Source of the DNA: Nitrospirota bacterium
Lineage (GTDB): Bacteria; Nitrospirota; UBA9217
Direction: 5' to 3'
Length of the DNA stretch: 64,000 nucleotides
NCBI GenBank assembly: GCA_963754875.1
Contig: CAVWHO010000016.1
Coordinates: 70,286 to 134,285 of the forward strand
Shown here: positions 8,957-46,012 of the stretch, piece by piece
Layout: the number at the start of each line of letters is the position of its first letter
Position numbering within the stretch: position 1 is the stretch's first letter
Made by a program: the position numbers and the translations under genes
The notes under the pieces: model-generated
Told to the model about the DNA's origin: nothing
Databases searched by the model: none
The model's input: only the letters and a program-made list of their open reading frames with translations

Positions 8957-9021
8957 TGAAGATTAGAAATTTTAAATTTCGAGGCCTTACAACTACGATC
9001 TAAAATTTCTAATCTTCAATT
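8957..9021. promoter_or_regulatory. Perfect 21-bp inverted repeat (aattgaagattagaaatttta, 23-bp spacer, taaaatttctaatcttcaatt) in the AT-rich gap just upstream of tolQ
   Basis: Read directly from the sequence. It sits between the 3' end of the moeA-PBP gene and the tolQ start. It could be an operator, a terminator hairpin, or both. Confidence 0.5.
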
Positions 9022-9033
9022 TCCAATACCCCG

Positions 9034-11012: not shown

Positions 11013-11096
11013 GGTGCGTGATCAGCACAACCTCCGACTGGCGAGGCGAGGTTTTTTTGTTTCGACCTGTCACGGTGCCTCTGTGGCGAACATCCT

Positions 11097-24900: not shown

Positions 24901-27900
24901 AGGGCTGCGGGATTTGCCGATGTTTCGCTTGACGTGACCGTAACAACGTACGCTGTGCTATCGGCCGAAAGAACAGACATCCCTGAAGCTGCTTCCTACC
25001 TCGCCATCGCACTTGGAGCCGGCGACTACCTCTGCAAGAGGATAAAAGAACACGCTGCAGGAAGAGTTCAATTCCCGGGCCAGATGCTCGACACCGAGGG
25101 CAGGGATGGTATTGCGAAGCTCGGCGCAGTCAAGGCCATGATCGCCAGAACTGAAGCGTGGCGGCTCCTGCTTGAGAACCTTTACGACGTTTATGCCAAA
25201 CCGGAAAGCCGAAATCCGCAAACCGAAATGAATTTCTCCCTCATCTGCACTTCGCTCGCTGCCATGTCTTTCAGCCCGGAGCCGGGCGCCATGGGATACG
25301 ATGCGGGCCAGGTCTTCGGCGGATTCGCGTACTCCGAAGACGACCTGCTCTCGCGGTTCTACCGGGACAGCGCTCTCTTCCGGTTCCTGGCGCCGGGATA
25401 CGGCGCATCGACTAAGCTGCATGCCGCTCTCGTCTCCCTCAGTGATGACATCGTGTTTTCCGGCTTTGGCGACCTCGGAAAAATTCAAAATGCACCGCTC
25501 AGGGACTTCGTGCACGGCCTTTCGGACGTTGAGAACAAATGCCGTACCCTGCCCGAAAAAGCAGATCCGGGTCTCACGGGTGAAGCGCAAGCCGTCATCA
25601 TCGGCATTCGCAGGCTTCTCATCAGCATTGAAAACGGACTGAACCAGGGCAGGAGCACGGAACGAGAAGCTGCTGCCGCAGAAGTGCTCCTTGGTCTGGC
25701 GGAAGACGCGCTTCAGAAGGCCCGTCTCTCAACAGGACGCGGCCGCGTATCGCCCTTTGCTCTGTTCCCGGTGGAGCCCGGAGGTACGCCCGCCACGCTC
25801 GACAGGGACTATGAATCCTTCTGCAGAGCGCCCGGCGCTCCGCATATATCGGGTAGCTTCCTCCTGTCTGCATTCGACCGGGCATTGCGTTTTGTCCCTG
25901 AAGTGCAGCTCCATGACGCCCGCCTCCGAAACCGCTGGACCGAACTCACTGATTGGTTCAAACAGAACTGCCGCGACAAGAAATTCGAGGGACTTTTTAT
26001 CGAACGGTATATCGAGAAAATCCACGGCCTTCCTGACGAGGTCATCGATGCCGTCAAGAACAATAAGTGGCTCGCCACGTACGTTCCGAAATCCGAGGAC
26101 GGGCTCGGATGGCGCAAGGCTGAATATTACATCCTGAATTCCGCGGCAGGGAGCTTCGGTGACGCAGGCATCGATCTCCTCATCATGGCAAGCACGAGCA
26201 TCGGCACAACACCCATTCTCCTGGGACTCGAGGACGAGCTGCCGCGCGTGCGCCAGGAACTGGCGCCCCTGGCACAGGATGCAGGCATTCTGGGCGAGAT
26301 CAACACAAAGCTTTCCAGGATCATCGGGATGTTCTCGAACCCCAACCCGTCCCTGATCAGGAAAGAATACGAAGCGCTGATAAAACTCGTGGACGTCCGG
26401 GTCCGCCGCACCCGAGTGGTCAAGTATCTGGCCGCAAATTTCCTGCGCGCTTTTTACAGCGCAGGCATTGCAGGCAGGCGCGGCGATTTCAGCGGGTTCA
26501 CTGCAAACCTCAAACACGCAGGCGGCCTTTTCGAAAACATCATGCCCGATGTCCGTGCCGCCCTGGAAGAACTTCCTCGGCGCGAGCGATGCCATAAACT
26601 TTTCCTCCGTTATCTTGGCCACGGCGGCGTGAGCGCCTTTGCTCTTACTGAACCGACCGCGGGCTCGGACTCCGGCGGTGTCAAGACCACGGCGAAGTTA
26701 GAGACGATAAAACTCCTTCCCCGTGATGACGGAAGGTATGCTTTCCAGCTTGACGGGCAGAACGACAAAAGCGAGCGCTATTTGATCGACGCAGACAAGA
26801 TTGCCTTTACCGATCGGGGTATCTCATATCAGACGCCGGACGGGCAGTCTGCGTTAATTCAATATGACCGCTATGATTATGCAACTGACCAGGGGACGAG
26901 ATACTACCTGTACCAGGGGAACGTCTGCGAGTTCCATGACATCGGCCAGGTGCGAAAGACCAATGCCGGGCTTACGTATGAGTATTACAGCCTGACCGGT
27001 GCGAAGATGTGGATCACGAACGGAAGCATCGCGACCCAATTTTCCCTTTTTGCCCAGACAAACGAAGGCGTCACAGGTTTCATGGTGGACCGGCACAGCG
27101 AAGGACTCAAGGTCGGGGCGGACGAAGAAAAAATGGGGCAGCGAGGCTCGCCTACGAACGAAATCTCGATCGACGCTGTGCGCGTTCCGCGCGAGGCCGT
27201 GATCGGCTACGAAGGCCACGGCCAGGTGAATGCCCTCGAAACGCTGAACGTCGGGCGCTGCGGTCTTTCCGTCGTGTCCGGCGCGCTCAGTCGCAAGCTG
27301 TTGGAAGAAGCACGCCGAAATATTCCCTCAACGCCGGAGCGGGACCGATTGCTCGGCGAAGCTGCAGCGATCATGTTCGGCAGCGAGTCCCTTGCCTACT
27401 ACCTCGTAGGCCTATTCGACCGGCCTCACGAGTCGGTCCGCATGGAGTCAGCAATTGCAAAATATGTCTGCTCCGACGATATCCATGAACTCATCTCGCT
27501 CGTCGAGTATGCCTACGGCCCCTCCGGCCAGACGGAAAAGTTCCTGCTCGAAAAAGCGCGGCGCGATGCGCGCATCCTGACCATCTACGAAGGAACGAAT
27601 GAAGTGCAGCGATTTTTGATCCTGAAGGACCTGATCGCCATGGCCCCAGCCTGGTCCGAGATACCCGTGCCGCAGGATGATCCCGCATCACGAACGCTTG
27701 CAGAATGGAAGAACAAGCTGAGAAACCAGGTGAAGGAAGCGGCCCGCTTGCTCGGCGATGCGTCGTGGTCCGACGCGATGCTCCAGCCCGCACTTTTCCC
27801 AATTGCCGATACGGCGGGTGAGGTCCTGCGGCTTGACTGCATATACTACCGCATGGAGTGGCTCGAACAGCAAAGAGCGGTCCTCGAACAGGGAGATCGG

Positions 27901-29853
27901 GACTACGTGCTCGATCTCCTTGATGCCGGCAATCGCGCTGCAGAAAGGTCCCTCGCGCGGCTTGCTTATCTCGACAAAAAGTACTCCTCTGCCCTGGCGC
28001 TCCTCCGGGAAAACAACACTATGCCCGAGGTACGCGCTGCGGATGCCGCCCTTGATGCTTTTGCGGAACACGAAAGGGTGGCTGGCCCTTCTCCCGGCAG
28101 CGTGCGGGCCCAACTGAACTGCCTCGTCATTGTCCGGCCCGTTGCCGAACTTTCTCCGCGCCCGAGGATCGCGGACAACGCGCTTCAGGAGATCCTGTGG
28201 CAACTTGATCCATGCGATCTTTCCGGTCTGGTCCAAATGCGGGAACTCAAACAAGCAAGCGATTCCAGCCTGACCATCGACGTGCTCATGCCCGGCGGCC
28301 CCGAGTTTGATCATCTTTTGAGAACAGCGGCAGGCGCCCGCGCAGACAACCTCCTTCGCCTTGCTGTCGATCCTGCGGCAGGTCCGGGATCTTACGTGAA
28401 GGCCGTGAAAGACCTCGAAGTGCTGAGACCATACGATCTCATCGTGATTGGTGCAGACTGCCTCGATGGCGACCGGAGTCTCGGCGCCTATTTGGCAGGA
28501 TGTTTCAAGAAGAACCTTTACCGCAGAGACCGAATCGAAGCCAAACCGGACGGGACCGGCTTGACCCGTGTCGTACTGCCGGCAGTGATCAGCATGACCT
28601 CGCCAGTGAAGGACAAGGGCTGCGACATGAAATCGGCCGTAGCCGCCGCCTTTTCGATTATACGGGTAATCGGGCCTTCGATGAATGAGCCATCGACCGA
28701 GCCCGGTCGTTACGAACGAGTATCCGGGAAAGAAACCATTGCGCAGACTGTGACGGACACGGCTTCGGCAGCGGTCTATCTCAAGGAGTTTGCAGCTTCA
28801 GCGAGTGCTGCAGCTGCCGGAGAGTATGCCGGTCCGGTAAAGAAGGGAACGTTTGCGCAGGACAGTGCGGTCTGGGCTTTGCTCGGACCTCATGAGCAGA
28901 AATCCAACATCGCGGTGCTCCGTGCTGCACGGCTTGCTGCCGACCTTACTGGCAGGAAGGCGCGTGCCGTCATCCCCGCACCGAGAGGAATGTGGCCAGC
29001 TCTCCTCGGGCTTGCAAAAGCCCAGGGGTGTGAGCAGGCATTCTGTGTGGACACGCAGGACAATAGGTTGTCGAGTGAGGGAAAGCGAAAAATCGTCCGC
29101 GTTGTCCAAAAGACAGCGGACGAGACATTTCTCTGTGCAGGGCCGGAATGGACAGGCGCATTCGCCTACGCCGGCGGCGAGTCCGACAACCCCAAGTCGC
29201 CTGTCCTTCTCTGCTCCGGAGTTACGGGAATTGAAAAAGGAGGGACCGGCTCTCTCGCCTTTGCGCTTCAGTCCTATGAAGGTAAACTCGTCCGGCGTTT
29301 AGTGCAGAAACGCGGTTCTTCTTTCATCACCACTGTCCCTGAAGCAGATTTCCCTGTTGCTCCGGAAGCGTTGACGTTCGACGCCGCAGTCCTCGACTTT
29401 GCAATTGACCCCGAATTACTCATGCCTTTGCCGCCCGTAGCAGCCCCAACGCTCTCGCAGGCGGACGTTATCATCGATCTCGGTTACGGTATCAAGGATA
29501 AGGCGGGGCGTGAACTGGCGGAAAAACTCAGGACAAAACTCGAGGCACTGGGACTCGCACCGATGTTCGGCGCAACGCGCAAGGTGACGCAGGACTTGAA
29601 GCTCCTGCCGCTGGACGCCCAGATCGGCCAGACGGGCATCCGCGTCAACCCGAAGCTCATCATTGCGCTCGGCATCTCGGGCGCGCCGCAGCATATCGAC
29701 TACGTCGGCACACGCGCGGAGATTCTCTGCTTCAATAAAGACCCCGAGGCTCCGCTCATGAAGCTGAACCAGACGAGGCCTTCACCGCGCGTTCATCCCA
29801 TCGTGGGTGATCTTTTCGTGACGGTGCGGGAGATCATCGCCAGGCTTTCGTAA
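21934..29853 (+). CDS. Giant 2,639-aa multidomain flavoprotein. Order: FixC-like ETF:quinone oxidoreductase (aa 1-480), hydrophobic helix (533-560), FixX-like ferredoxin (630-700), degenerate ACAD-like domain (720-1165), acyl-CoA dehydrogenase with an insertion (1440-1905), EtfB (2060-2310), EtfA (2320-2639)
   Basis: A single uninterrupted ORF with AAGGAG 5 nt before the ATG. The N-terminus DVAIIGAGPAGVAAAGSLAGSGITVALVEAG...AGAENWSGCVYF parallels FixC. CPARVYVYD...NFENCIKCESCWRA parallels FixX (CPAGLY...GCLECGTCR). LTEPTAGSD (26644) and ARRDARILTIYEGTNEVQRF (27589) are ACAD signatures. PKLIIALGISGAPQHIDYVGTRAEILCFNKDPEAPL...IVGDLF is the EtfA FAD-binding signature. DLIVIGADCLDGDRSLGAYLAGCF is EtfB-like. 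Confidence 0.85.
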   Translation: MNHYRFDVAIIGAGPAGVAAAGSLAGSGITVALVEAGVYAGAENWSGCVYFTENLAEKDCFGAEAIEAAPFERRIARRGTLMHNGIDVIGIELTSLEAFKNCYTVLRPVFDPYFAHLAREKGAVHITGTTVTSLIRKEGRVVGVMTDRGPLYAGVVFLAEGDASHLVRSEQLENTAQPHFLQGVKAVLSLASEEIEKRFKLDPGKGAAYELLLRNPSLSGRTAKLNVGGFLYTNRDSLSMGYVVPLDNLRDYYRGSHDMLFEWMRGLPYLRELTEGAALSAYGTKIIRSGGWRERPVLVQNGLAVGGASTGLGVDIPFPNFTGPASATGLYFARAVKNIFKRGGAFDAKTLSREYLEPLLESVHGENSRYLSAWPGYFGKSNVLFSRTVDMACGSVHFLSKKDIVETGRFLRNHVLSVRGIKESIVDTMHAISALRLWRPLAKTVINPLTIGRWFANLFKRAPAPDRKLGFIIQIAGKERNAASLPWPTGSLVRRLSPALVLALEQIYANDNRPAEKKFSHAVRSLLQGLKLTDFIILPAFGFVLVFFALGTALWDAFRFYLLKTPVDKLLAEPVMAYNESLRKARDLDAVKPRQSLEAKLATNTYHVGDASHIRTLWPEAIPAHPDMSQAALWWLCPARVYVYDAPLAGRGKVTVNFENCIKCESCWRAEPQRVLWGRHTDHKLIYRPDSAAIPVLLHALRENLPSRKGTHPAIAPLDEKLWYLNEDVLQLGQEAFNASSAFIDAVAKLPASSDRGRNAWPLSLGKRLSEKLLKLEAAFTNDGRYAQAEIIQVERKDIELKLTEGRLLHALYCCRRFEQGILSWVREDDGYTIPASTVKKYDRTLSYEEVSRIFPDRIVKQWEEEFMPDAWAETLRQFILEQRDKPLEAIRALSSVNPALGLIAAHQLLANELLTKSSIEPGPGICAAAADHLDIEEEGSGSVRIKGPLSLVPIAASRTLLLTSGGKGYIIPLADAGVTISHTPTIGFRAAGFADVSLDVTVTTYAVLSAERTDIPEAASYLAIALGAGDYLCKRIKEHAAGRVQFPGQMLDTEGRDGIAKLGAVKAMIARTEAWRLLLENLYDVYAKPESRNPQTEMNFSLICTSLAAMSFSPEPGAMGYDAGQVFGGFAYSEDDLLSRFYRDSALFRFLAPGYGASTKLHAALVSLSDDIVFSGFGDLGKIQNAPLRDFVHGLSDVENKCRTLPEKADPGLTGEAQAVIIGIRRLLISIENGLNQGRSTEREAAAAEVLLGLAEDALQKARLSTGRGRVSPFALFPVEPGGTPATLDRDYESFCRAPGAPHISGSFLLSAFDRALRFVPEVQLHDARLRNRWTELTDWFKQNCRDKKFEGLFIERYIEKIHGLPDEVIDAVKNNKWLATYVPKSEDGLGWRKAEYYILNSAAGSFGDAGIDLLIMASTSIGTTPILLGLEDELPRVRQELAPLAQDAGILGEINTKLSRIIGMFSNPNPSLIRKEYEALIKLVDVRVRRTRVVKYLAANFLRAFYSAGIAGRRGDFSGFTANLKHAGGLFENIMPDVRAALEELPRRERCHKLFLRYLGHGGVSAFALTEPTAGSDSGGVKTTAKLETIKLLPRDDGRYAFQLDGQNDKSERYLIDADKIAFTDRGISYQTPDGQSALIQYDRYDYATDQGTRYYLYQGNVCEFHDIGQVRKTNAGLTYEYYSLTGAKMWITNGSIATQFSLFAQTNEGVTGFMVDRHSEGLKVGADEEKMGQRGSPTNEISIDAVRVPREAVIGYEGHGQVNALETLNVGRCGLSVVSGALSRKLLEEARRNIPSTPERDRLLGEAAAIMFGSESLAYYLVGLFDRPHESVRMESAIAKYVCSDDIHELISLVEYAYGPSGQTEKFLLEKARRDARILTIYEGTNEVQRFLILKDLIAMAPAWSEIPVPQDDPASRTLAEWKNKLRNQVKEAARLLGDASWSDAMLQPALFPIADTAGEVLRLDCIYYRMEWLEQQRAVLEQGDRDYVLDLLDAGNRAAERSLARLAYLDKKYSSALALLRENNTMPEVRAADAALDAFAEHERVAGPSPGSVRAQLNCLVIVRPVAELSPRPRIADNALQEILWQLDPCDLSGLVQMRELKQASDSSLTIDVLMPGGPEFDHLLRTAAGARADNLLRLAVDPAAGPGSYVKAVKDLEVLRPYDLIVIGADCLDGDRSLGAYLAGCFKKNLYRRDRIEAKPDGTGLTRVVLPAVISMTSPVKDKGCDMKSAVAAAFSIIRVIGPSMNEPSTEPGRYERVSGKETIAQTVTDTASAAVYLKEFAASASAAAAGEYAGPVKKGTFAQDSAVWALLGPHEQKSNIAVLRAARLAADLTGRKARAVIPAPRGMWPALLGLAKAQGCEQAFCVDTQDNRLSSEGKRKIVRVVQKTADETFLCAGPEWTGAFAYAGGESDNPKSPVLLCSGVTGIEKGGTGSLAFALQSYEGKLVRRLVQKRGSSFITTVPEADFPVAPEALTFDAAVLDFAIDPELLMPLPPVAAPTLSQADVIIDLGYGIKDKAGRELAEKLRTKLEALGLAPMFGATRKVTQDLKLLPLDAQIGQTGIRVNPKLIIALGISGAPQHIDYVGTRAEILCFNKDPEAPLMKLNQTRPSPRVHPIVGDLFVTVREIIARLS

Positions 29854-34020: not shown

Positions 34021-34299
34021 GGGCCTGATTCCCCTCTTTCGTCGTTTCAAAAACAGGCTGGATAATAGCATCTCATACAGCACAAAGTCAAGCGCCCAAT
34101 GCAGGGGAACAGCGCCACGCGCCCCTGAAATCGCTGTCTGTCTTGAACGGGTTATGCTATAGTAAAAGACATGTCCGCCCGGATTGTCGCACTCGTGCTT
34201 GCATTCTTGCTCCACGGTTCTGCGGGGCAGTCCCATTCCCAGCCAAAGTCCCTTATACTGAAGCTCGACTATATAGCGGAAAAGACGGACTTAAAATAG

Positions 34300-35047
34300 C
34301 GGTCCCTCCCACGGTCGGGGAAATGCCGAAACTCGGTCTCGCGCTGGCTGGCGGCGGAGCAAAGGCCGCTGCATCGACCGAGGGACTGAAGGTCCTGGAC
34401 AAAGAAGGTATCCCCGTGTCCTTCATTGCGGGGACAAGCATGAGTGCGGGCCCGTCGACACTTGAGACACGCGTGTCTGACCCCACTCCGGTATTCTTGT
34501 CAAGGGGTCCTACGAGATGGCGCAGCCCGGCTGTGGGAGCACCAATGCCTTTACGAAAGCATCAGTGTATGCTCAAGGGAACCTGCCGCTGGGAGATCGG
34601 CATACGATCATCATGGAAGGCTCCGGCAGGGTCGGCAGCGGCGAACTGCCGTACCAGGAAAAGTTCGGGATCGGCGGGGCAGACTATCTATTGGGATTTC
34701 CTCTCATGGGATACCAGCGCAGGGAATTCGTAGGTGCCGATGAGCTGAGGTTCTCGCTGTCCTACCGGTGGAAGATCAAGGACTACCAGCTCAAGGCCGT
34801 GAAGGCCCTCTGCCTGAACGTTGCCTGACAAGAGGCAAGTGTCTGGAACAGCAGGAGCTCGATGTCGTCCGGTAATTTGTGGAACGGGGTCGGCATCGGC
34901 CTGCACGCAGATACCATTATCGGGCCCGTTAAGCTCGATTACGCAGTCGGGGGACACGACCGTTACGCGGTCTATTTTTCAGCGGGATTCGATTTTTTGA
35001 AAGGGGGCTGCGAGCACACCTGCTCCCGGCACTCTGTACCGCTGTAA
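34300..35047 (+). pseudogene. Remnant of a PlpD-like patatin-Omp85 (type Vd) gene: a patatin N-terminal fragment plus an Omp85/BamA C-terminal barrel end, internally deleted, frameshifted, and carrying an in-frame TGA
   Basis: Frame 0: KLGLALAGGGAKAAASTEGLKVLDKEGIPVSFIAGTSMSAG is the patatin GGGxK...GTSxG start. Frame 2: SGELPYQEKFGIGGADYLLGFPLMGYQRREFVGADELRFSLSYRW...TGA(34826)...WNGVGIGLHADTIIGPVKLDYAVGG is the terminal part of an Omp85 beta-barrel. The whole locus is only about 750 bp, whereas an intact PlpD is about 2.2 kb. Confidence 0.45.
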
Positions 35048-35112: not shown

Positions 35113-35466
35113 TTATGTTAGATAGCGCAGGTATTTTTTCAGCCTGTCCATTTCATGCCTTGCAAAGCATTCTTCCGCTCCCGCATCGATCAGACTTGCC
35201 CGGTCCTCGGTTGCAGCATGATTCGTGAATATGATAATCCGCGCTGCGGGGTTGTTCCTTTTCATACGTTTGAGCCGATTGAAGTAATCCAGACAGAACA
35301 TCCGCATATCGAGGAGAACGGCGATGTCCGTCGCGTTTCCAGGGAAAACGGTCTCGTTGAACGCCCCTTGATCTGCGACATCAACCGAGTGTCCTTCGTC
35401 TTCAAGCTCGTATTTGAGAACACTCGCGAGATTTTTTTCGATGTCTGCAATAAGTATCCGTGCCAT
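35113..35466 (-). CDS. Single-domain CheY-like response regulator
   Basis: 117 aa. ARILIADIE...DIAVLLDMRM...IIIFTNH has the receiver-fold pattern with the phospho-acceptor Asp in LLD. Confidence 0.65.
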   Translation of the reverse strand: MARILIADIEKNLASVLKYELEDEGHSVDVADQGAFNETVFPGNATDIAVLLDMRMFCLDYFNRLKRMKRNNPAARIIIFTNHAATEDRASLIDAGAEECFARHEMDRLKKYLRYLT

Positions 35467-35634: not shown

Positions 35635-35952
35635 TCAGCCGCCCTTCAATCTATGGAAAAGACAGGCGTACAGCTGGAAGTTCGATCCCTCTTCTTCTCG
35701 TACCTTTAAATAAAAATCACATTGCTCGCAATGCTCGAACTTCATACCGCACATTCCCTGGACCTTGCCGCTGCACAAGGTGCCCGCGATCATCCAGCAG
35801 GCTCTTCCACTGTTTTTCCCGCCGTGCACGCCATTCAGACGGGTATCCGTCGTTGCCGGGCAAACGCCCGACACGGCGGCGCGTTCACCACCGGGTTCCC
35901 TTCCACAACCCTTCAATTCCCAGCAATTCAATTTTGTTATGACATCGTCCAC
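35635..35952 (-). CDS. Uncharacterised Cys-rich small protein, paralog A
   Basis: 105 aa. NCWELKGCGREPGG...GVCP...LNGVHGGKNSGRACWMIAGTLCSGK...HCEQCDF is about 50% identical over the core to the adjacent ORF and shares an ordered set of eight Cys. Confidence 0.5.
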   Translation of the reverse strand: MDDVITKLNCWELKGCGREPGGERAAVSGVCPATTDTRLNGVHGGKNSGRACWMIAGTLCSGKVQGMCGMKFEHCEQCDFYLKVREEEGSNFQLYACLFHRLKGG

Positions 35953-35993
35953 GATTTCACCGCGTCCGGAAAAAAGGTCTCCTCTGAGGCTTT

Positions 35994-36356
35994 CTATTTC
36001 TTGGGCTTCTCCTGGGGAGTGGCCGGAGCTATTGATGGAAATTTTTGTTTTTCAAGGCACCGCTCTATCCCGAGACGCGTGACCGAAAAACCCAAGGCTG
36101 AGGGTTCTTCTTCCTGTTTCACTCGTGTCATGAATTCACAGCGCCAGCAATTATGTAATTTCTGCGCATAGGTGCCTTCAATTTTTCCGCCGCACAGGGA
36201 TCCCGCCACGACCCAGCATGCCCTTCCTGCGTTCTGGCCGCCGTGGGCGCCGCCCAAGTCCTGAGATGTGGACACCGGGCAGATGCCGAGTTCTTGCGCT
36301 TTATGGCCGCCAGGCTGACGTCCGCAATTCTTGAATTCCCAGCAATTCTTTTTCAT
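35994..36356 (-). CDS. Uncharacterised Cys-rich small protein, paralog B
   Basis: 120 aa. MKKNCWEFKNCGRQPGG...GICP...LGGAHGGQNAGRACWVVAGSLCGGK...NCWRCEF. A sigma-54-type promoter lies upstream (see the next feature). Confidence 0.5.
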   Translation of the reverse strand: MKKNCWEFKNCGRQPGGHKAQELGICPVSTSQDLGGAHGGQNAGRACWVVAGSLCGGKIEGTYAQKLHNCWRCEFMTRVKQEEEPSALGFSVTRLGIERCLEKQKFPSIAPATPQEKPKK

Positions 36357-36509
36357 ACCGTCCCTCCTGTATACCGTTCTCGATAATGCTCATCCCGTAT
36401 CGCGATGAGGTGGCTGGTCCCATATTCTGTAAGACATTGCAGCAACCACGGAAAAACGTTTTTCCGTTTCCGACAGATTGACACCGAGGAATGCGCTGCA
36501 TGAATGTCT

Positions 36510-36525
36510 AGCAAAAATATTGCCA
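36510..36525 (-). promoter_or_regulatory. Sigma-54 (-24/-12) promoter TGGCAA-N5-TTGCT, reading toward Cys-rich protein B
   Basis: The minus strand reads gagaTGGCAAtatttTTGCTagac. GG and GC are separated by 10 nt as in the consensus TGGCAC-N5-TTGCW. It lies about 150 nt upstream of the ATG. The palindrome GGAAAAACGTTTTTCC (36449-36466) lies in the predicted 5' UTR. Confidence 0.55.
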
Positions 36526-36824
36526 TCTCTAACCAATTGTTTTTTAAATTTTTAAGCAGTGAGAGAGCTGAAATGCCGGGCAATTTATCTTGGCATGACG
36601 GCAGAATGCCTGATTGAGAAGATGCGAAGGACAAAAAAATATTCAGGGTTTTACAATCACGGGTCCTGATGTTGACCGCCTCAACCCAGCATCCGTTTTA
36701 TTCGCTCTTTCTGCTTCTATTTACACCACGCCTTATCGGGCATTCTGTCTTCCAGATAGGGAGAGATTCCCGACTGTGCAGCGTGCTCGCATCACTATAC
36801 TATAAAAAATCAGTGCGTTAGCAA

Positions 36825-36840
36825 TGGCAGCATTTATGCT
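36825..36840 (+). promoter_or_regulatory. Sigma-54-type promoter TGGCAG-N5-ATGCT upstream of cytochrome c7
   Basis: aaTGGCAGcatttATGCTagg with correct GG-N10-GC spacing. It ends 27 nt before the ATG at 36868. Confidence 0.45.
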
Positions 36841-36867
36841 AGGAGAAGACGGCGGGAGGGAGTGGGC

Positions 36868-37185
36868 ATGAAAAAATATATTTTTATGATCGAGCTTATT
36901 TCACTTTTTCTCACACCAACGGCATGGTCAAAGATCGGAGGCGGAGATATAACGTTCCTGGTGAAAGATGCGGGGAATGTTGTATACAACCATGATTCCC
37001 ATGTCGATAAATTGGGGCTGGGGTGTTCAGCGTGTCACTACGGTATTTTTGCCCGGGCCGCACATAACATCAGGGATAAAGCGACCATGACAGAGATGCA
37101 GAATGGGAAGTCTTGCGGCAGTTGCCATAACGGACGAAGAGCATTCGGGGTAGATAAAAACTGCTCACGCTGCCATCATAAATGA
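36868..37185 (+). CDS. Periplasmic triheme cytochrome c7 (PpcA family)
   Basis: Signal peptide, then GDITFLVKDAGNVVYNHDSHVDKLGLGCSACHYG...MQNGKSCGSCHNGRRAFGVDKNCSRCHHK. It has three CxxCH motifs in a mature protein of about 80 aa, with the same spacing pattern as Geobacter PpcA. The start is set at the ATG at 36868, preceded by GGGAGGG. The ORF track uses a GTG two codons earlier. Confidence 0.8.
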   Translation: MKKYIFMIELISLFLTPTAWSKIGGGDITFLVKDAGNVVYNHDSHVDKLGLGCSACHYGIFARAAHNIRDKATMTEMQNGKSCGSCHNGRRAFGVDKNCSRCHHK

Positions 37186-37408: not shown

Positions 37409-40084
37409 ATGGAAAAAATTAAAAGAATAACCATCTCGGGCAAGCGGTATGATTTTTATCTGTTGTCGGCATGGACCGCGGTAATTGCTTTTGCTTTTAT
37501 TTTTTCTGCTTATTATTATCATCAAAACATGCTCGGCCAGGCCGCAATCGAAGCGCGAACACACTTGGATCTGGATATGGAATACAGGTCTTTTATAACA
37601 ACATTAGGAGGTGTGTATGTTCCCGCTTCGGTTGTTCGCCCGAATCCATTCCTCGTTGCCCGGAATAAAAATATCACGACAACCGAGGGAAATAAACTGA
37701 CGCTTGTTAACTCGGCATATATGACGAGATTGTTATTCGACACAGACAATACAAGTACGGGACAGCCCGCTATCAGCAAAATTACCAGTTTAAAGCCCAT
37801 TAATCCGGGCAACAAGCCGGACGCCTGGGAAAGGGACGCCTTGCTCTCCTTCGAGAAAGGTCGACAGGAGGCCCGTGAAGTCAAAACAATAAATGGAGAA
37901 CCCTTTTTGAGACTCATGCGACCGCTCGTCACCGAAAGAAGATGCCTCATGTGTCATGCATACCAGGGGTATAAGGACGGAGATATCCGCGGCGGCATCA
38001 GCGTGGCCGTTCCGTTAAAACAGTATCTGAAAACAGAATCAAGAACAAGAAGCAAATTATTTATTATCGATATTTTCGTTTGGCTTATCGGATGCGCAGG
38101 GATCGTCGGCTTTTCCAGGGTCAGGCAAGAACAGGAAAAAGATCTTGTGGAAAGCGAATGGAAGTTCAGGACTGTATCAGAATCAACTCATGACTGGGAG
38201 TATTGGGCTGCTGAAGATGGGTCAATAGCATATATGTCCCCTTCCAGCACGATCATCACCGGTTACAGCCCCGAGGAGTTCTTAACGAAGCCCGACCTTC
38301 TCATGGAAATCATGCATGATGAAGACAGAGCTACCTTTAGTTGTCACTTGAGTGATGTGAGGGCCAAGCAACACCGGGAAATAGAAATCAGAATTATCAC
38401 AAAGGACGGCCATCTGAAATGGATTGCTCATTCATGTTCTCCTCTCTATAAGAAGGAAAGATTCCTCGGAAGGCGTGTAAACAACAGGGACATTACCGAA
38501 CGCAAACAGGCCGAGGAGGCCCTGATCGAACAGGAGGGGTTTTCAGCAAATCTTATCGGGCACTCGGCAACGGCAACTTTCGTTTTGGATAAAAACCACA
38601 AGATCATGCTCTGGAATAGGGCATGCGAAGAACTTACCGGGCTTCGTGAATCCCAGATGATAGATACCGATGACCAGTGGAAACCCTTCTACAGCTACAA
38701 GAGGCCCACCATCGCAGATTTCATTATTGACAACGATTTCGAAGAGCTTTTTAAATATTATGACAATTATACAAAATCACCACTCCTCCCCCAGGGAATC
38801 AAGGCCGAAGGCTGGTATCGAGATCTCGGTGGCAAGGACAGATACATCATCTTTGAGGCGTCTCCGATACATAGCAGCAAAGGAAAGCTGATAGCCGCGA
38901 TTGAGACACTGCAGGATATAACGGAAAACAAAAAACTTGAGGAACAACTTCTTCAGTCCCAGAAGCTAGACGCCATCGGTAAACTCGCTGGCGGCGTGGC
39001 CCACGACTTTAATAATATACTGACCGCTATCATGGGGTTTTCTCATCTCACGCTTTCGAAACTGCCTGAAGACGATCCGTTGAGAGGCAACATGGATCAA
39101 ATTCTCCTCGCGTCGAACCGGGCAGTCGAGCTTACCCAGGGTCTTCTTTCTTTCAGCAGGAAACGTATTATGAACCCTGCGCCGCACAGCCTGACTGACA
39201 TTGTCGTGAAACTGAAAAAATTTTTGCTGCGGTTGATCAGGGAGGACATACAGCTGCTTATTACGCTGTCGGAGGAGGAACTGACTGTTTTCGTTGACAG
39301 CGGCCAGATTGAGCAGGTGCTGATGAACCTCGTTACAAATGCAAGAGATGCCCTGCCGACGGGTGGGCAAATAGCTATCCGAACTGAGTCTGCATACTTG
39401 GATGAGTCCTTTGCCGAGACGCATGGGTATGGGGAGGCGGGCAGATATGCCGTTCTCATTGTTTCTGATACAGGCAAGGGAATGGATGCAAAAACGAGAG
39501 ATAGGATATTCGAGCCTTTTTTTACAACAAAAGAACAGGGGAAAGGGACAGGTCTCGGCCTCGCAGTAGTATACGGCATCATCAAGCAGCATAATGGATT
39601 TATCAACGTCTATAGCGAGCCGGGGAAAGGTACGTCGTTTAAAATCTATCTGCCTCAATTGAGAGGGAGCCACAAGGTAGAGCAAAGAGAGGTGCAATCC
39701 AGCACAATACAAGGCGGCTCAGAGACGGTACTCATAGCCGAGGACGACGCAGTGTTGAGGGAACTATCGTCCACAATACTGCGCAATCACGGATACCACG
39801 TGATCGAGGCGGTTGACGGCGAAGACGTAGTGGTCAAATTCAACGAAAACAAGGGTCGCGTGAAATTGATTATCTTCGACGTCATTATGCCGAAGAAGAA
39901 CGGTTTAGAAGCGTATCAGGATATTCGGAGGATAGACCAAGCGGTGAAAGCAATTTTCGTCAGTGGTTATGCGGAAGACTTAATGAATAAAGAAGGTCTG
40001 CTTGAGCCCGGCATCAATTTCATTTCTAAACCCATTATCCCATCAACGTTGTTGCAGAATGTGAGAAAAGTGTTGACTTCGTAA
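37409..40084 (+). CDS. Hybrid sensor histidine kinase with a periplasmic c-type-haem (CxxCH) Tll0287/DUF3365-like sensor domain, PAS domains, HisKA, HATPase_c and a C-terminal receiver
   Basis: 891 aa. TM, then ...PGNKPDAWERDALLSFEKGRQEAREVKTINGEPFLRLMRPLVTERRCLMCHAYQGYKDGDIRGGISVAVPL matches the DUF3365 haem-binding sensor pattern. HDFNNIL is the H-box. The ATPase G-boxes are GKGMD...GTGLGLAVV. The C-terminal VLIAEDDAVLREL...LIIFDVIMP...KP is a receiver. Confidence 0.8.
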   Translation: MEKIKRITISGKRYDFYLLSAWTAVIAFAFIFSAYYYHQNMLGQAAIEARTHLDLDMEYRSFITTLGGVYVPASVVRPNPFLVARNKNITTTEGNKLTLVNSAYMTRLLFDTDNTSTGQPAISKITSLKPINPGNKPDAWERDALLSFEKGRQEAREVKTINGEPFLRLMRPLVTERRCLMCHAYQGYKDGDIRGGISVAVPLKQYLKTESRTRSKLFIIDIFVWLIGCAGIVGFSRVRQEQEKDLVESEWKFRTVSESTHDWEYWAAEDGSIAYMSPSSTIITGYSPEEFLTKPDLLMEIMHDEDRATFSCHLSDVRAKQHREIEIRIITKDGHLKWIAHSCSPLYKKERFLGRRVNNRDITERKQAEEALIEQEGFSANLIGHSATATFVLDKNHKIMLWNRACEELTGLRESQMIDTDDQWKPFYSYKRPTIADFIIDNDFEELFKYYDNYTKSPLLPQGIKAEGWYRDLGGKDRYIIFEASPIHSSKGKLIAAIETLQDITENKKLEEQLLQSQKLDAIGKLAGGVAHDFNNILTAIMGFSHLTLSKLPEDDPLRGNMDQILLASNRAVELTQGLLSFSRKRIMNPAPHSLTDIVVKLKKFLLRLIREDIQLLITLSEEELTVFVDSGQIEQVLMNLVTNARDALPTGGQIAIRTESAYLDESFAETHGYGEAGRYAVLIVSDTGKGMDAKTRDRIFEPFFTTKEQGKGTGLGLAVVYGIIKQHNGFINVYSEPGKGTSFKIYLPQLRGSHKVEQREVQSSTIQGGSETVLIAEDDAVLRELSSTILRNHGYHVIEAVDGEDVVVKFNENKGRVKLIIFDVIMPKKNGLEAYQDIRRIDQAVKAIFVSGYAEDLMNKEGLLEPGINFISKPIIPSTLLQNVRKVLTS

Positions 40085-40195: not shown

Positions 40196-41803
40196 GTGAT
40201 AATGAAAAAAACTATTAACGGCAATATGTCATTGTCTTCGAAAATTGGTGCCCCCATTGTTGTCGCTGTATTTATTGGTATTGCCATTTCCGTACTTGTT
40301 ACTGGCTATACAATGAAATTAATTGTTATTCAGGAGGTGGAGAAATCGACGCTGGAAACAACGCGAGATACGGTTCTGAATTCCCTTACAACAATGATGG
40401 TGAGTAATGATATTCAAAATTCAAAGAAATTATTCATCGACCAGATGAAGAATATTGTCGATCTGAAAGTAATCAGGTCAGATAAATTAAACGAACAATT
40501 TGGCACGGTTGAAAAAAGTTATACAAAAGATGATATTCAAGCGGAAGTACTCAGCAAAGGAGTAGAGAAAATAGTCCTTGAAGGTGAGTCTATAAGAGGG
40601 GTTTATCCCTATATTGCCAAGCGGAATATTATGGGGAGAAACTGCCTGAGCTGTCACAATGTGCCCGAAGGGACTGTCCTGGCGGCTGTGGACATAACAG
40701 TACCCCTCGGCGCCTCCTATGCGAGAATTAAAAAATTACAGTGGCTATTTGTCCTTTTGGGTCTTGCAGGAATTTTGACGCTCTTGTTTATTGTCCGTTA
40801 CATAATGAAAGTCATGCTGCGGCCCCTCCACGAAGTTATAAGCAAAATAAAGGAAGTTTCAACGGGCGATCTTACCGTACATTTCCCTTATCATAATAAT
40901 GACGAAATAGGGGTTCTCTCACGAAACATGGAAACAATGACGCAGTCGATTTCCTTATTAATCACGCGTATTCTGACAACATCCTCAAAAGTTGTTGATT
41001 CTGTCGATGCTCTTCAGCAAAGCGGAGACCGTCTGTTTACTAGCGCTAAAAACCAAGCCGTGCAGGCTCAACATATTGCGTCAGCGTCGGAAGAGATGAG
41101 CCTGACGATCGGAGACATAGCAAAAAATTCTTCCGTAGCGGCATCAATTACTTCAAACGCCATGAACATGGCGAACGGAGGAAAATCTGTCGCCGAAGGG
41201 GCCGTGCAAATAATCACTAATGTGGATGCCTGCAGTGCTGAGTTGCAGCACCTCATTAATGATTTGAATGAAAGCGCTATGGATATAGGCAACATTGTAA
41301 CTATTATCAATGGAATTGCCGATCAGACCAATTTGCTTGCGTTAAATGCATCGGTCGAAGCAGCGCATGCCGGCGATAAGGGCCGTGGTTTTGCTGTTGT
41401 TGCTGATGAAGTCCGCAAATTGGCCGAAAAAACGATTAATGCTACAATAGAAATATCCAGCAAAACAAAAGCAGTACAGCAAAAAACAAACCAAGCTACT
41501 ATATCGATGGAAAGTTCCTCGAAGGAAGTAAGTAAAGCCACTACACATATGAAGAGCGTGGGAGAACAATTACACCACATCGTGGATGCTGTTCAAAAAG
41601 CCAAGGACGAAATAATATCCATTGCTACAGCTGTTGAGGAACAGTCCTCGGTTGCCGAGAATGTCACGAAAAACATAGCAATAACATCTAATACCGCTCA
41701 AAGCATGGAAGATCTGGCAAACAATATTTCACATCAGGTTAATGCTTTAACCAAAGTAGTTACCGAGATGAGAGAATATTCCTCTGAGTTCAAAACTGCC
41801 TAA
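40196..41803 (+). CDS. Methyl-accepting chemotaxis protein whose periplasmic domain carries a CxxCH haem-binding motif
   Basis: 535 aa with two TM helices. Its periplasmic domain carries [23 protein letters not shown], and it has a HAMP domain. The MCP signalling domain carries the highly conserved [34 protein letters not shown]. Haem-containing chemoreceptors of this kind are known in Geobacter. Confidence 0.8.
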
Positions 41804-41849: not shown

Positions 41850-44679
41850 TCACTGTCGCGGCAGCGTGATGGAAAAGGTCGTTCCCCTCCCCAATTCGGT
41901 CGTAACGCGGATATCGCCATGATGGTCAACAAGTATTTTTTTTGTAATCGCAAGTCCGAGGCCGGTCCCCCCGTTGGCAGCTTTCGTCGTATAGAAGGGG
42001 TCAAAGATCCTATTGATCTGCTCCGGCAATATGCCGCCTCCCGTATCGCTGATCCTGATGTTGACCGCCTCCTCCTCAGCAACCGTCTCGATGGCCAAGG
42101 CGCCTTTGTCGTCCATGGCGTCGAGGCCGTTTGTAATCACCGTGAGAAAGACCTGCCTCAGTTCCCCTTCGTTCCCATAGACGGTAAGGTTCCCTTGTGT
42201 ATAGCCTCTCACCACCTCGACTTCTTTTAATCTGCCTTGAAGGCTGATGACCTCCAGTGTCCTGTCGATCATCTCATGGACATCGATCGTCTTTTTGTCC
42301 GGCGAGCCTTTCCGTACGAACGAAAGCATGCCTGTGGTTATATTTTTGCACCGCGCAATCTCTTCTTCGATGATCTCCAGATATTTCTTGAACAGCGCCG
42401 GCTCAAAGTGTCCCTGGTTAACCCGGTTCAAGAGACCTTCCGCACATCCCCTGATCGCGGCCAACGGGTTGTTGATCTCATGGGCGATGCTCGCCGCCAT
42501 CTGTCCGAGAGATGCCAACCGCTCGTTCATGATGAACCGCATCTCTCGTTCCCGTTCCTGCGTCACGTCTCTTACGATATTGATGGTCCCGCCGGGGGCC
42601 CCATCGGGGTTCAGGTAAGGAAAGTGCGTGGTCACCAACGTTCTTTTATTTATCGGGTCCACCTGTTGGACATCAGCCGCGATGCCTGTTTCCTGTATCC
42701 TATGGTGCGGACAATCAGTATAGGGATCACGTGATTCGTGGACCAGTTCGTAGCATTTCTGATTGAGAATTGACGAAAAGCTCTTCCCAACATACGCAGC
42801 AAAGGCCTTGTTCGCCTTGATAATCCTGTATTCCCTGTCGGTGATGCAGATGGGGTCCTGGATATTATCGAAAGTATCACTCCATTCTTTCTCGGAACGG
42901 CTGACCTGAGCGACCAGATACTGAAGCTCCATGACGAACTTCTCCCGTTCCATCTCCATCCGCTTTCGCTGTGAAATATCGACCACCGCGATCCGGATCT
43001 GACCTGCCTTATCGTCGACATTATCGGCGATCGTACTCTGGAGTTGGGCGTAAAATGCCGGGGCATTTCTCGGTACTATCCTCAACTCGCAGGTCTGTAA
43101 TGCTTGGCTCCTGAATGTTTCCTTACGATGGCCTTCGTAAACTGCAAGATCGCCCTTTTCGATAAAAGGGGTAAAAGATTCCCCTATCAACAGATGCCTG
43201 GTTACGCCCACCATATTGGCCCCGGTAAGATTCGCTTCCCGGATCCGACCGCTTGCATCAATCAAGAAATACCCGAACCGGAGAGAAATCAAAGAGGTCC
43301 CTATATCTGGCGCGGGAGGATTCAAGCTCCACCCGCGCGCGGTGCAACGTTTTTTCCGCCTGTTTGCGCTCAGAGATATCGCGTACGATCGCCACCATGT
43401 ATCGCTTCCCCCCCTCGGCAACAGGCATGACGTTGATTTCAACGGGGAAGACACTGCCGTCTTTTCGCCGATGCAAACTCTCGATCATAAACGATCGACG
43501 CTTGAGGACGTCTTCGCACCTTTGTTTCCATGAGTGATCGTCCGGAATATTTAGGTCGAAGTCCCTTACCGACAAAGACAGCACTTCCGGGCGGGTGTAA
43601 CCATACCTCTCGCAGACTTTCTCGTTGCAGTCCGAAAAACGGCCGGTTTCGTGATCAGTTACGAATATGCAATCGTTTGACCGGTCGATAAGCGCGCGAA
43701 ACAGCCTCAGGTCCTTCTCAGCCTGCTTCCGGCTGGTAATGTCCCTCGCTACTTCAACAGCCGCGACGACCTCCCCCGACACATCGCGCACCGGAGATGC
43801 AATAAGTTCGTACGTTACTTCGCCCCGTTGTTCGATCAGGCCAGTTCGCTCCACGATATGGCGCTTCCCATCCTGGAAGGACAGCACAAGGGGGCAATCT
43901 TCACAGACAGCGTCCTTCTTCCGGTACGCCTTGTAGCAATACTCGCCGACATGGTCTCCGCCGACAAGTTCCCTGTGGAGCCGATTCTGATAAATGACCC
44001 TGAAATCCCTGCCCTGCATGCTGACGCCATCGGCTATAGCCACTATGATAGCCTCGGACTTGTTTTTTTCTTCTACGGTTTTTGCCAGCGCCCGACGCAA
44101 CGTTTCTTCCGCCTGTTTGCGCTCGGAGATGTCCACAACGGCAATTCGGATCAGACCGTTCGCCTTGCCATCCTGTTCGACAGCCAAGCAGTGCAACTGA
44201 GCAAAAAACGGGGAACCGCTCTTTCTTTTGAGTTTAACTTCGCAAGGTTGCTGGTACTTCTTCTCGATGACTTCGGCAAAATGAGAGAGGAACACCCGCT
44301 GTTCTTTCCTGTCCGCGAGAAAAACGGAGAAGGGTCCGTTGATCACTTGCAGCCGGTTGACGCCGAGCAGGGTCGCACAGGCGAGGTTAATTTCCTTGAT
44401 CGCGCCGCGGGCATCGAGCGCAAGATAGCCGACAGGCGCAAAATCGTACAAATCGGCCAACTTGTCGCGGGACGATTCCAGTGCCTCCCTCGTACGTCTG
44501 AGCTCTTCGTTCTGCATTTCGAGCTCGATCTGGTGAGTTCCGAGCTCATTGACGAGCTGTTTTAAATCATAGGTCGTGAGCTTGCTCAAGCCTTTCGTCT
44601 GTTCACCGAGCTTTTTCTTCGCCTTCCGTCGAAGGGCGGCGAGGGTTTCCGATTTTGAACTGGATTTTTTCGTAGGCAT
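41850..44679 (-). pseudogene. Large multi-PAS sensor histidine kinase split into two ORFs by a 1-nt insertion near 43274-43280
   Basis: ORF 43258-44679 encodes a coiled-coil plus about 4 PAS domains ending ...RARYRDLFDFSPV. ORF 41850-43454 continues in the +1 frame (GYFLIDASGRIREANLTG...) through more PAS, HisKA (HEINNPLAAIRG) and HATPase_c (DTGGGI...GTGLGLAI). Deleting the c in ccggttcgggtat joins them. The 5' end is set at the internal ATG at 44679, which overlaps the upstream regulator gene by 18 bp. Confidence 0.65.
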
Positions 44680-44695
44680 TCTTCTCACCGAATCC

Positions 44696-46012
44696 TCATT
44701 CTTCCACCCCGTAGCTTGCCAGCTTCCGGTACAAGGTCTTCGGGTCAATGCCGAGCAGTTCCGCCGCCTTGCCCCGCTGTCCTGCCGATGCGTCGAGGAC
44801 GCGCAGGATGTGCTCCCTCTCGACGTCTTCGAGCCGCGTGGAGGCTGCCTTCGGGCCCGTGACAAGATCGAGAGGGAGGTCGTAGGGTTCAATCACATCG
44901 CTGCGCGACAGGAGGAGCGTCCGGTGCACGACGTTCTGCAGTTCCCGCACGTTTCCGGGCCACGGGTATGCTGTGAGGACGCGGAGCGCCGACTCGCTGA
45001 ACCGCTTTTGCTTGAAAGCGGCGTCACGCTTCGTAAAGTAATCGATCAACGCCCGGATGTCCTCCTTGCGCTCCCGCAAGGGCGCAATCGGCACGGTGAG
45101 CGCCGTGACCCGGTAATACAGGTCTTGCCTGAAGGCCCCTTTCCGGATTTCTTCCTTAAGGTCCTTGTTCGAAGCAGCAAGTATCCTGATGTCCACCTTC
45201 TGCTCACGGGTGCCGCCGAGCCTGAAGAAACTCCCAGTTTCAATGACCCGGAGCAGCTTTATCTGGAGCGCAAGGGGCATGTCACCGATCTCATCGAGGA
45301 AGAGCGTCCCGCTGTTCGCGACTTCCAGGAGTCCGGGTTTTCGTGCTGAAGCGCCGGTAAATGCACCTTTTTCAAAACCGAACAATTCGCTCTCGATCAT
45401 GTTCTCGGGAATCGCCCCGCAGTTGATCGGGACAAAGGGACCGCCGGCGCGCTTCGACTCCCGGTGGATGCTCGCTGCAATCAGTTCTTTGCCCACGCCG
45501 CTCTCGCCGGTAATGAGCACGGGGAAATCGGATTGAGCGACCTTTTTCGCGGTCTCCTGCAATTCCTGCATTACGCGACTCGCGGCAATAAGGTGTTTCC
45601 GTTCCGTCTGCCGCTGAATTTGCGTTTTTAAAAGAATATTCTCGCTGCGGAGCTTCTTTTTTTCGTAGGCTTTATCGATGATCGGTCCAAGTTCTTCCAG
45701 GCGGAATGGCTTCGACAGGTAATCATAGGCCCCGAGTTTCATGGCCTCGACGGCAGTCGATATGGTTGCGTTCGCTGTCAGCACGATCACTTCGGTGGGA
45801 ATATCGAGAGACTTTATTTTTTTTAGGACATCGATGCCCACGAGTCCGGGCATGTTCAGATCGAGAAGGAGAACATCATATTCGTCCTGATCGAGCAGTT
45901 CCAGAGCCCGCCGTCCGTTTTCCACCTCATCTACATGAGTGTGATCGTTCGAAAGCTCCGTACGCAACACCTGCCTGATGTTCTTTTCATCGTCGGCAAC
46001 GAGCAGTTTCAT
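44696..46012 (-). CDS. Sigma-54-dependent response regulator (NtrC family: receiver, AAA+ sigma-54 activator, Fis-type HTH)
   Basis: 438 aa. KLLVADDEKNIRQVL...DVLLLDLNMPG is the receiver. GESGVGKELIAASIH...GAFTGA...GTLFLDEIGDMP, GSFFRLGG and the ESELFG motif mark the AAA+ sigma-54 activator. The C-terminal EREHILRVLDASAGQRGKAAELLGIDPKTLYRKL is the HTH. Confidence 0.9.
   Translation of the reverse strand: MKLLVADDEKNIRQVLRTELSNDHTHVDEVENGRRALELLDQDEYDVLLLDLNMPGLVGIDVLKKIKSLDIPTEVIVLTANATISTAVEAMKLGAYDYLSKPFRLEELGPIIDKAYEKKKLRSENILLKTQIQRQTERKHLIAASRVMQELQETAKKVAQSDFPVLITGESGVGKELIAASIHRESKRAGGPFVPINCGAIPENMIESELFGFEKGAFTGASARKPGLLEVANSGTLFLDEIGDMPLALQIKLLRVIETGSFFRLGGTREQKVDIRILAASNKDLKEEIRKGAFRQDLYYRVTALTVPIAPLRERKEDIRALIDYFTKRDAAFKQKRFSESALRVLTAYPWPGNVRELQNVVHRTLLLSRSDVIEPYDLPLDLVTGPKAASTRLEDVEREHILRVLDASAGQRGKAAELLGIDPKTLYRKLASYGVEE

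Follow-up and report, generated by a model that had tools for sequence, protein, structure and literature searches.

Paralogous two-CW domain proteins encoded with a degenerate receiver downstream of a putative sigma-54 promoter in a Nitrospirota bacterium

The stretch of DNA examined here, 64,000 nucleotides (nt) of the Nitrospirota contig CAVWHO010000016.1 (assembly GCA_963754875.1, positions 70,286 to 134,285 of the forward strand; hereafter the window), contains on its reverse strand two adjacent genes for small Cys-rich proteins: gene A (35994-36356, 120 amino acids (aa) from an ATG start) and gene B (35635-35952, 105 aa from a GTG). The two are separated by 41 bp, just as they had been described from the sequence. 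It is practically certain that both proteins belong to the two-CW family (NCBIfam NF045718), which is abundant, found mainly in anaerobes and associated with signalling. Together with a downstream gene for a degenerate receiver they form a module that is conserved in related genomes, and on balance we lean toward A and B being sensors or adaptors in the cytoplasm that carry a metal or Fe-S centre and provide input to a phosphorelay. The interest of the locus lies in the two-CW family as a whole: there is hardly a class of signalling output in prokaryotes to which the domain is not joined, and Foldseek finds no structural relative of it in the PDB. Should it prove to be a redox sensor with a metal or Fe-S centre, it would fill a gap in how anaerobes, among them sulfate-reducing Nitrospirota, methanogens and Asgard archaea, sense cytoplasmic redox.

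The two-CW family

Protein A scores 101 bits and protein B 106 bits against NF045718 (curated cutoff 35 bits), each covering profile positions 1-80 of 80. Both share the two CW dipeptides and the seven-Cys pattern of the family and match the whole model, and relatives from Thorarchaeota and Latescibacterota, among others, already bear this name at the NCBI; what the family definition does not contain is the A-B-pseudo-receiver module under sigma-54 described below. NF045718 is a name and a sequence model, with no described function, Pfam model or PDB relative. Since it was the sole match obtained, the original prediction was right in assigning A and B to no characterised family; they are members of an already catalogued, uncharacterised family, and not of a new one. 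A Pfam scan of the two proteins gave nothing at E ≤ 1, neither for Fer4, rubredoxin, CCG or zinc-ribbon models nor for the eukaryotic CW-type zinc finger (PF07496), which is similar only in name. A search of the PDB by sequence profile returned a chance match alone (E = 1.2), Foldseek searches of the PDB with AlphaFold2 (AF2) models of the single domain and of a tandem found nothing below E = 5, and a search of the literature on two-CW or NF045718 found nothing relevant.

Members of the family are numerous. Among 1.84 billion cluster representatives a full scan yielded 1,281 two-CW clusters (50% identity) at E ≤ 1e-3; a profile search, with clusters drawn at 90% identity, gave at least 7,272 of them, and a genome scan at least 598 genome stretches with a two-CW gene. 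The main carriers are Nitrospirota; the others comprise Desulfobacteraceae and other Deltaproteobacteria, Omnitrophota, Latescibacterota, Ignavibacteria, Planctomycetota, Dehalococcoidia, Bacteroidetes, Ammonifex, Methanoregula and Thorarchaeota. Anaerobes dominate this distribution (Thermodesulfovibrionia, Desulfobacteraceae, Methanoregula, Thorarchaeota, Omnitrophota, Dehalococcoidia, Ammonifex), which we take as a hint of a connection with redox.

That A and B are paralogues, estimated beforehand to be about 50% identical, is borne out by BLASTP (42 of 82 positions identical, 51%, E = 5e-34). More than 600 homologues were found for A and more than 300 for B, the best of which (55-90% identical) come from metagenome-assembled genomes (MAGs) of Nitrospirota, Nitrospiraceae and Thermodesulfovibrionales. 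The orthologues of A (64-90% identical, Nitrospirota MAGs) and those of B (a set of their own, 55-72%) form two separate identity classes. The possibility that the two genes are spurious open reading frames (ORFs), raised at the outset, is contradicted by their conservation in other genomes and by the ratios of nonsynonymous to synonymous substitution (dN/dS) calculated against the closest relative, locus L090, whose A protein is 90% identical: A gives 0.17, the receiver 0.22 and B 0.24. A and B are therefore real, conserved genes under purifying selection. The start of B is uncertain: a TTG at 35931 would give a protein of about 98 aa, L090 shows an ATG at the matching position, and the start codon in the majority of B orthologues lies 4-5 residues further in than the GTG. 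Because neither A nor B has a signal peptide, both are predicted to be cytoplasmic.

Conserved residues and predicted fold

In protein A the two-CW domain occupies residues 3-82 and is followed by a C-terminal tail of about 35 aa. Seven Cys (C5, C11, C26, C47, C55, C70 and C73 in A numbering, with the spacing C-x5-C-x14-C-x20-C-x7-C-x14-C-x2-C) are each at least 90% conserved in an alignment of 157 domains that represent 149 clusters (50% identity), and they are present in both halves of tandem two-CW fusions. The two CW dipeptides of A are C5W6 and C47W48. Other conserved positions in the same alignment are N4, W6, G12-R13, G16-G17, G24 and P27, and further along G40, G44-R45, W48, G52 and F75. 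An ordered signature of eight Cys had been proposed; only seven are shared and conserved, and an eighth was rejected, the additional Cys (C100 in A; C68 and C97 in B) not being conserved in orthologues. Also discarded was His38 as a family-wide eighth ligand: it is kept in 65 of 66 members of the Nitrospirota A/B clade, where the consensus of the family has Asn. The two halves of the domain can be aligned in register as [CW-x(4/6)-C-x14-C] x2, a weak similarity (hhalign local P = 0.014) that hints at an internal duplication.

The AF2 model of A is loop-rich with short helices. Its predicted local distance difference test (pLDDT) scores, averaged over blocks of 10 residues, range from 81 to 96 over residues 1-80 and are above 90 for residues 1-50, with values of 63-78 in the tail; a tandem two-CW fusion is modelled as one compact unit (predicted template modelling score 0.72, mean pLDDT 84.7). 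Small loop-rich domains of such kind usually need a metal centre, and it is quite likely that two-CW binds some metal; that the metal is specifically part of an Fe-S centre has slightly less than an even chance. A parallel to the mechanism that we propose below is offered by the WhiB-like (Wbl) [4Fe-4S] proteins and by FNR and NreB, small or modular Cys-ligated Fe-S proteins that sense O2, NO or the redox state and work through contacts with other proteins or on kinases. They differ from two-CW in having four Cys in other motifs (C-xn-C-x2-C-x5-C and similar), Wbl proteins are moreover limited to Actinobacteria, and no homology of A or B to any of the three was detected by Pfam or by PDB profile.

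The degree of conservation also bears on a group of explanations suggested by the small size and Cys content of these proteins. Tandem small Cys-rich paralogues are typical both of precursors of ribosomally synthesised and post-translationally modified peptides (RiPPs) and of metallothionein-like metal buffers, and an anti-sigma function, as in the zinc-binding anti-sigma (ZAS) factors, had been among the first suggestions. We regard all three as very improbable. Two-CW is modelled with high pLDDT as a folded domain and occurs inside large signalling enzymes, which speaks against both a RiPP precursor and a metallothionein; against the latter stands also the strict conservation of the spacing and of the non-Cys residues W, G, R and N. 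Neither the window nor the conserved loci contain a RiPP maturase (radical SAM, cyclodehydratase, protease) or exporter. As for ZAS factors, Pfam gives no zf-HC2 match, the H-x3-C-x2-C motif is absent, and there is no sigma factor gene in the neighbourhood, so that the anti-sigma suggestion is not upheld.

Fusion partners and genomic context

Thirty multidomain relatives were scanned for partner domains: 4 had none that could be recognised, 26 had a partner known to Pfam, and in all but one of these 26 it was a signalling domain. The types of partner are PAS, GAF, HisKA/HATPase, Pkinase, PP2C, cyclic-nucleotide (cNMP)-binding, GGDEF, cyclase, HAMP-STAS, Usp, methyl-accepting chemotaxis protein (MCP) and receiver (REC) domains, and two-CW is commonly fused to itself. 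At the N-terminus two-CW precedes the PAS and/or GAF-HisKA-HATPase segments of histidine kinases (HKs), Ser/Thr kinases (with cNMP-binding and PP2C domains), PAS-GGDEF proteins, adenylate/guanylate cyclases, HAMP-STAS and DUF4118-Usp; at the C-terminus it follows MCP signalling domains (including NIT-MCP), GGDEF domains, histidine kinases and bona fide receivers. In addition, a comparison made in 80 loci shows the density of ORFs for histidine kinases, receivers, enhancer-binding proteins (EBPs) and MCPs to be 2.6 times higher in the 2.5 kb around the two-CW gene than in the distal flanks of the same loci (42 vs 27 ORFs, p = 5e-5). A signalling role of the family is thus probable, and the sensing or regulatory function tied to two-component signalling that had been foreseen for A and B agrees both with the density of signalling genes and with the fusions to histidine and Ser/Thr kinases, GGDEF, MCP and REC domains.

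Comparison with CZB, the chemoreceptor zinc-binding domain (PF13682), is instructive. This small Cys/His metal module, a sensor of redox or oxidants, can stand alone, form the C-terminus of an MCP or be part of a GGDEF protein, and two-CW occupies the same architectural positions. The two are otherwise distinct: CZB is a four-helix bundle with a Zn site of three His and one Cys, whereas two-CW contains seven Cys and is predicted to be rich in loops. Since Pfam gives no sequence match between CZB and A or B, the latter are not members of that family.

The same architectures allow two further explanations to be weighed. According to the first, two-CW would be an output or interaction domain, such as a small metal-stabilised module that binds DNA, RNA or RNA polymerase, and A and B would be stand-alone regulators, acting on transcription or as adaptors, instead of sensors. 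Small Cys-rich metal domains often bind nucleic acid; two proteins, P0131 and P0161, are bona fide response regulators with intact receivers in which two-CW takes the output position with no other effector; the domain has conserved Arg/Lys residues (R13, R45, K66); and in Thorarchaeota a two-CW gene overlaps a MarR gene. We nevertheless consider this explanation unlikely, because in 16 of the multidomain proteins scanned or listed, which are cytoplasmic kinases, cyclases or GGDEF proteins, two-CW forms the very N-terminus, and in others it lies at the C-terminus of MCPs, which are positions typical of PAS, GAF and CZB input modules, and because it bears no Pfam or PDB likeness to any DNA-binding family.

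The second explanation, that A and B are low-potential ferredoxin-like Fe-S electron carriers working in the respiratory chain with cytochrome c7 or DsrAB and not in signalling, has still less in its favour. It is true that they are small Cys-rich proteins of anaerobes, that they appear to be co-regulated with a cytochrome c7 (see below), and that three copies of two-CW stand upstream of dsrAB in locus L088. Moreover, the single non-signalling partner is that of a rubrerythrin-like diiron protein, in which two-CW takes the usual place of rubredoxin in an arrangement that mimics the rubrerythrin-rubredoxin fusion. However, c7 has a signal peptide and A and B do not, which places them in different compartments; the fusion partners of the family are overwhelmingly signalling domains and not oxidoreductases; A and B contain no Fer4 or rubredoxin motif; and their conserved partners are a pseudo-receiver and kinases. 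Taken together, these observations make an electron-carrier function quite improbable.

The A-B-receiver module and its control region

The third gene of the module (35113-35466, reverse strand) encodes a single-domain receiver of 117 aa that scores 44 bits against PF00072 (cutoff 30.2); the orthologue in L001 reaches only 27.6 bits. The receiver domain expected downstream of A and B from the first reading of the sequence is thus present; its CheY-like active site is degenerate across the orthologues. The window protein has D-I-E in place of the DD pair and retains the phospho-acceptor Asp53. Reading the window, L001, L004, L005, L090 and L091 in this order, the phospho-acceptor position is D/D/D/G/N/N, the Lys position R/K/K/R/K/R, and the Thr/Ser position T/A/S/S/T/M. 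Pseudo-receivers keep the receiver fold and typically act as interaction adaptors. Since here too the acidic pocket, the phospho-Asp, the Thr/Ser and the Lys vary among orthologues, we treat the protein as a pseudo-receiver adaptor; this appears to be its best description, with the difference that the window copy, through Asp53, could conceivably be phosphorylated.

This receiver subfamily was found only beside A-B pairs. The order A-B-pseudo-receiver recurs in L090, L091, L001, L004, L005 and L095, which makes seven loci with the window; outside this close clade, many stand-alone two-CW genes have unrelated neighbours. A hybrid kinase follows the module in L001, L004, L005 and L095, a sigma-54 activator adjoins it in L004, L091 and L095, and in the last two a sensor kinase does so as well. 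In L091 the genes are co-directional, in the order activator, PAS, HATPase, c7, A, B, receiver. A Rosetta-stone link between the window pseudo-receiver and the receivers fused to two-CW was considered and rejected, the similarity being that of receivers in general.

Upstream of A, on the same strand, lies a -24/-12 promoter sequence, TGGCAATATTTTTGCT (36510-36525), that matches 10 of the 11 scored positions of the sigma-54 consensus (TGGCAC-N5-TTGCW, with GG at -24 and GC at -12). Only two sites with a score of 10 or more occur on both strands of the 64-kb window. The sequence is identical in L090, where the intergenic region is 81% identical; 10/11 sites lie about 50 nt upstream of the A orthologues of L001, L004, L005 and L022, and sites of equal quality precede more distant two-CW genes (L016, L037, L041, L076). 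Overall a sigma-54 site was found in 17 of 85 loci, against an expectation of 0.035 per locus. The promoter noted at this position from the window sequence is therefore conserved at orthologous loci, with an orthologous NtrC-type activator encoded nearby, and from these sequence comparisons the A-B-receiver operon is quite likely to be under sigma-54 control.

An inverted repeat, CAGGCA-N24-TGCCCG (36577-36612, reverse strand), which resembles an upstream activating sequence (UAS) and is a candidate activator site, precedes the -24 element by about 70 nt; a second copy, CGGGAA-N24-TGCCCG (36737-36772, reverse strand), lies about 70 nt upstream of another sigma-54-like promoter, TGGCAGCATTTATGCT (36825-36840, forward strand, 9/11 consensus positions), which faces the divergent c7 gene and is conserved in L090 as TGGCAGCATTTATGCA. 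In the 64-kb window, where 0.06 matches to the pattern would be expected, there are two, both of them in the A-c7 intergenic region. The element, with its N24 spacing, also precedes the sigma-54 promoter in L090 and L091; in the latter the promoter TGGCAATATTCTTGCA, a 10/11 site, stands before c7, and CGGGCA-N24-TGCCCG is found about 75 nt upstream of it. The two promoters of the window are part of a 38-nt imperfect inverted repeat (36508-36545 and 36805-36842) whose arms are 76% complementary. This repeat, the duplicated UAS-like element and the intact operon of L091 suggest that an ancestral c7-A-B-receiver operon may have been split by an inversion that duplicated the control region, leaving a single regulon.

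The arrangement is similar to that of divergent NtrC-type sigma-54 regulons, with GG-N10-GC promoters, an inverted repeat about 70 nt from the -24 element, and a receiver-AAA+-HTH_8 activator encoded nearby with its cognate PAS kinase. It differs from them in the leader of the window operon, which at about 140 nt is unusually long; in more distant orthologous loci the corresponding distance is about 25 nt. In this leader, at about +33 to +52, lies a palindrome that had been reported as 16 bp long (36449-36466). It is real and perfect, and in fact longer, extending over 20 bp (36448-36467, ACGGAAAAAC/GTTTTTCCGT). Its 16-bp core GGAAAAACGTTTTTCC occurs once in the window at up to two mismatches, with 0.01 expected. 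The palindrome is not conserved in L090, the closest relative, despite the 81% identity of the intergenic region, and for this reason we rejected it as a conserved operator; any function of it is doubtful. The predicted RNA fold of the leader is not unusual (z = -0.53), and an Rfam search of the leader and intergenic region gave no family at threshold. A weak match to the flavin mononucleotide (FMN) riboswitch over the c7 control region (36743-36854, forward strand) was set aside, being most likely due to chance (20.6 bits, threshold 66.2; E = 0.055).

A proposed mechanism

What the window offers is a compact conserved system in which the two paralogues and the pseudo-receiver come together with a sigma-54 activator of their own and with heme proteins under the same apparent control; for this system we propose the following scheme. 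The two-CW domain would be a cytoplasmic module of about 80 residues held together by its seven Cys around a metal centre, for which one or more Fe-S clusters are the most plausible candidates. A, B and the pseudo-receiver would be co-transcribed from the sigma-54 promoter. The NtrC-type activator encoded at 44696-46012 on the reverse strand is the candidate regulator of both promoters: controlled probably by the adjacent PAS kinase, it would switch on the A-B-receiver promoter by binding the CGGGCA-N24-TGCCCG element, and the second copies of promoter and element would drive the divergent genes for c7, a heme-type hybrid kinase and an MCP. The duplication of promoter and UAS-like element leads us to propose that the two operons form one regulon.

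At the protein level A would pair with B, as the two domains do in natural two-CW-two-CW fusions; this pairing is a tentative element of the scheme. A and B would also contact the pseudo-receiver, in an association comparable to the natural receiver-two-CW fusions, and the three proteins would, by protein-protein contact, inform the hybrid kinase or a chemotaxis-like pathway of the cytoplasmic redox state or of some small molecule that is redox-active. The periplasmic c7 and the CLMCH motif in the Tll0287-like domain of the kinase suggest a parallel periplasmic redox input. Further hints of redox are the apparent co-regulation with c7 and with this kinase, the three two-CW copies before dsrAB in L088 and the rubrerythrin-like fusion. 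In its widest form the scheme would make of two-CW a new class of metallocluster (probably Fe-S) sensor of redox or gases, shared by Bacteria and Archaea, Asgard Thorarchaeota included, and with a fold that has no counterpart in the PDB, and of the A-B heterodimer with its pseudo-receiver a new cytoplasmic redox input to sigma-54/hybrid-kinase networks, coupled to a periplasmic heme branch; we rate this wider claim as somewhat short of an even bet.

Several observations weigh against the interpretation of A and B as metal-dependent sensors or adaptors. The cofactor is something that we infer, and the seven Cys fit no canonical Fe-S or Zn motif. The diiron fusion, which would connect the domain with redox chemistry, is known from one cluster, whose Pfam score is weak (32 bits), and the layout of P0131 and P0161 would fit an interaction or nucleic-acid-binding output just as well. 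A signalling gene is present within 2.5 kb in only 26 of the 80 loci used to measure enrichment, these loci are not phylogenetically independent, and outside the close clade there are many stand-alone copies in ftsZ, dsrAB, DEAD helicase and other contexts. As regards transcriptional control, the UAS-like pattern, a post hoc definition, is missing from L001, L004, L005 and L095, whose activators are only about 40% identical.

Neighbouring genes and other loci

Divergent from A is the gene for a triheme cytochrome c7 (36862-37185, forward strand; TIGR04257, 85 bits; PF14522, 63 bits), with an N-terminal signal-like segment and a true start that is probably the ATG at 36868. The divergent c7 of the initial description is thus confirmed, and the association is conserved: c7 is divergent from A in L090 and is the first gene of the c7-A-B-receiver operon in L091. 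It is followed by a hybrid histidine kinase (37409-40084, forward strand) in which Pfam domains and transmembrane (TM) segments are arranged as TM, Tll0287-like, TM, two PAS, HisKA, HATPase and receiver. The Tll0287-like domain lies between two predicted membrane segments and carries the CxxCH heme-c motif CLMCH, which makes it a likely periplasmic heme sensor; c7, apparently co-transcribed, may be the redox partner of the kinase. The kinase is 41% identical to the one that follows A-B-receiver in L001, and strong matches to its PAS-like segment 366-520 were limited to the post-module kinases of L001 and L004 (186-202 bits). Next comes an MCP (40196-41803, forward strand; HAMP and MCPsignal domains). 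An MCP also follows the receiver in L001, with a similarity of 36% confined to the HAMP and signalling regions.

The NtrC-type activator (receiver, AAA+ and HTH_8 domains; PF00158, 234 bits) is 71% identical to the one that heads the c7-A-B-receiver cluster of L091. Downstream of it a PAS-rich histidine kinase (41850-44892, reverse strand) is distributed over two ORFs that overlap by about 200 nt, one with PAS domains (43258-44892) and one with PAS-HisKA-HATPase (41850-43454). L091 has the same order activator-PAS-HATPase, split there into PAS and HATPase proteins of 461 and 151 aa, and the kinase may be naturally split or decaying.

Elsewhere in the window, the region 34171-35047 (forward strand) contains short ORFs, spread over several frames, in which a signal peptide, the first part of the patatin motif (GGGAKAAA...GTSMSAG) and the last, C-terminal strands of an Omp85 barrel can be recognised. 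An 892-aa patatin-POTRA-Omp85 protein is encoded by an intact gene convergent to the two-CW module in L001, in comparison with which the window copy looks like a heavily deleted and frameshifted pseudogene. About 6 kb from the two-CW locus there is a single ORF of 2,639 aa (21934-29853, forward strand).

Three other contexts of two-CW genes deserve mention. A stand-alone A-like gene (6001-6411) is kept in two genomes, at loci L085 and L087: on one side it has a gene pair encoding a SpoU methylase and a 148-aa unknown protein, on the other the dcw cell-division cluster with its ftsZ end. In the Thorarchaeota (Asgard archaea) locus L093 two genes (38-595 and 5001-5564) encode fused tandem two-CW proteins next to a gene pair for a Roadblock/LC7 protein and a small GTPase; an overlap with the stop codon of a MarR gene, which in turn follows a PAS-HATPase kinase, is seen for one of the two. 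Finally, in the Nitrospiraceae MAG locus L088 three tandem two-CW genes of 101 aa each (5574-6950) lie directly upstream of a region (7098-11162) in which dsrA-dsrB-like genes, recognised by their NIR_SIR and ferredoxin domains, are accompanied by a small ORF and by a gene of the CbiA family (DsrN-like); this array may link the family to dissimilatory sulfite reduction, through either its control or its supply of electrons.

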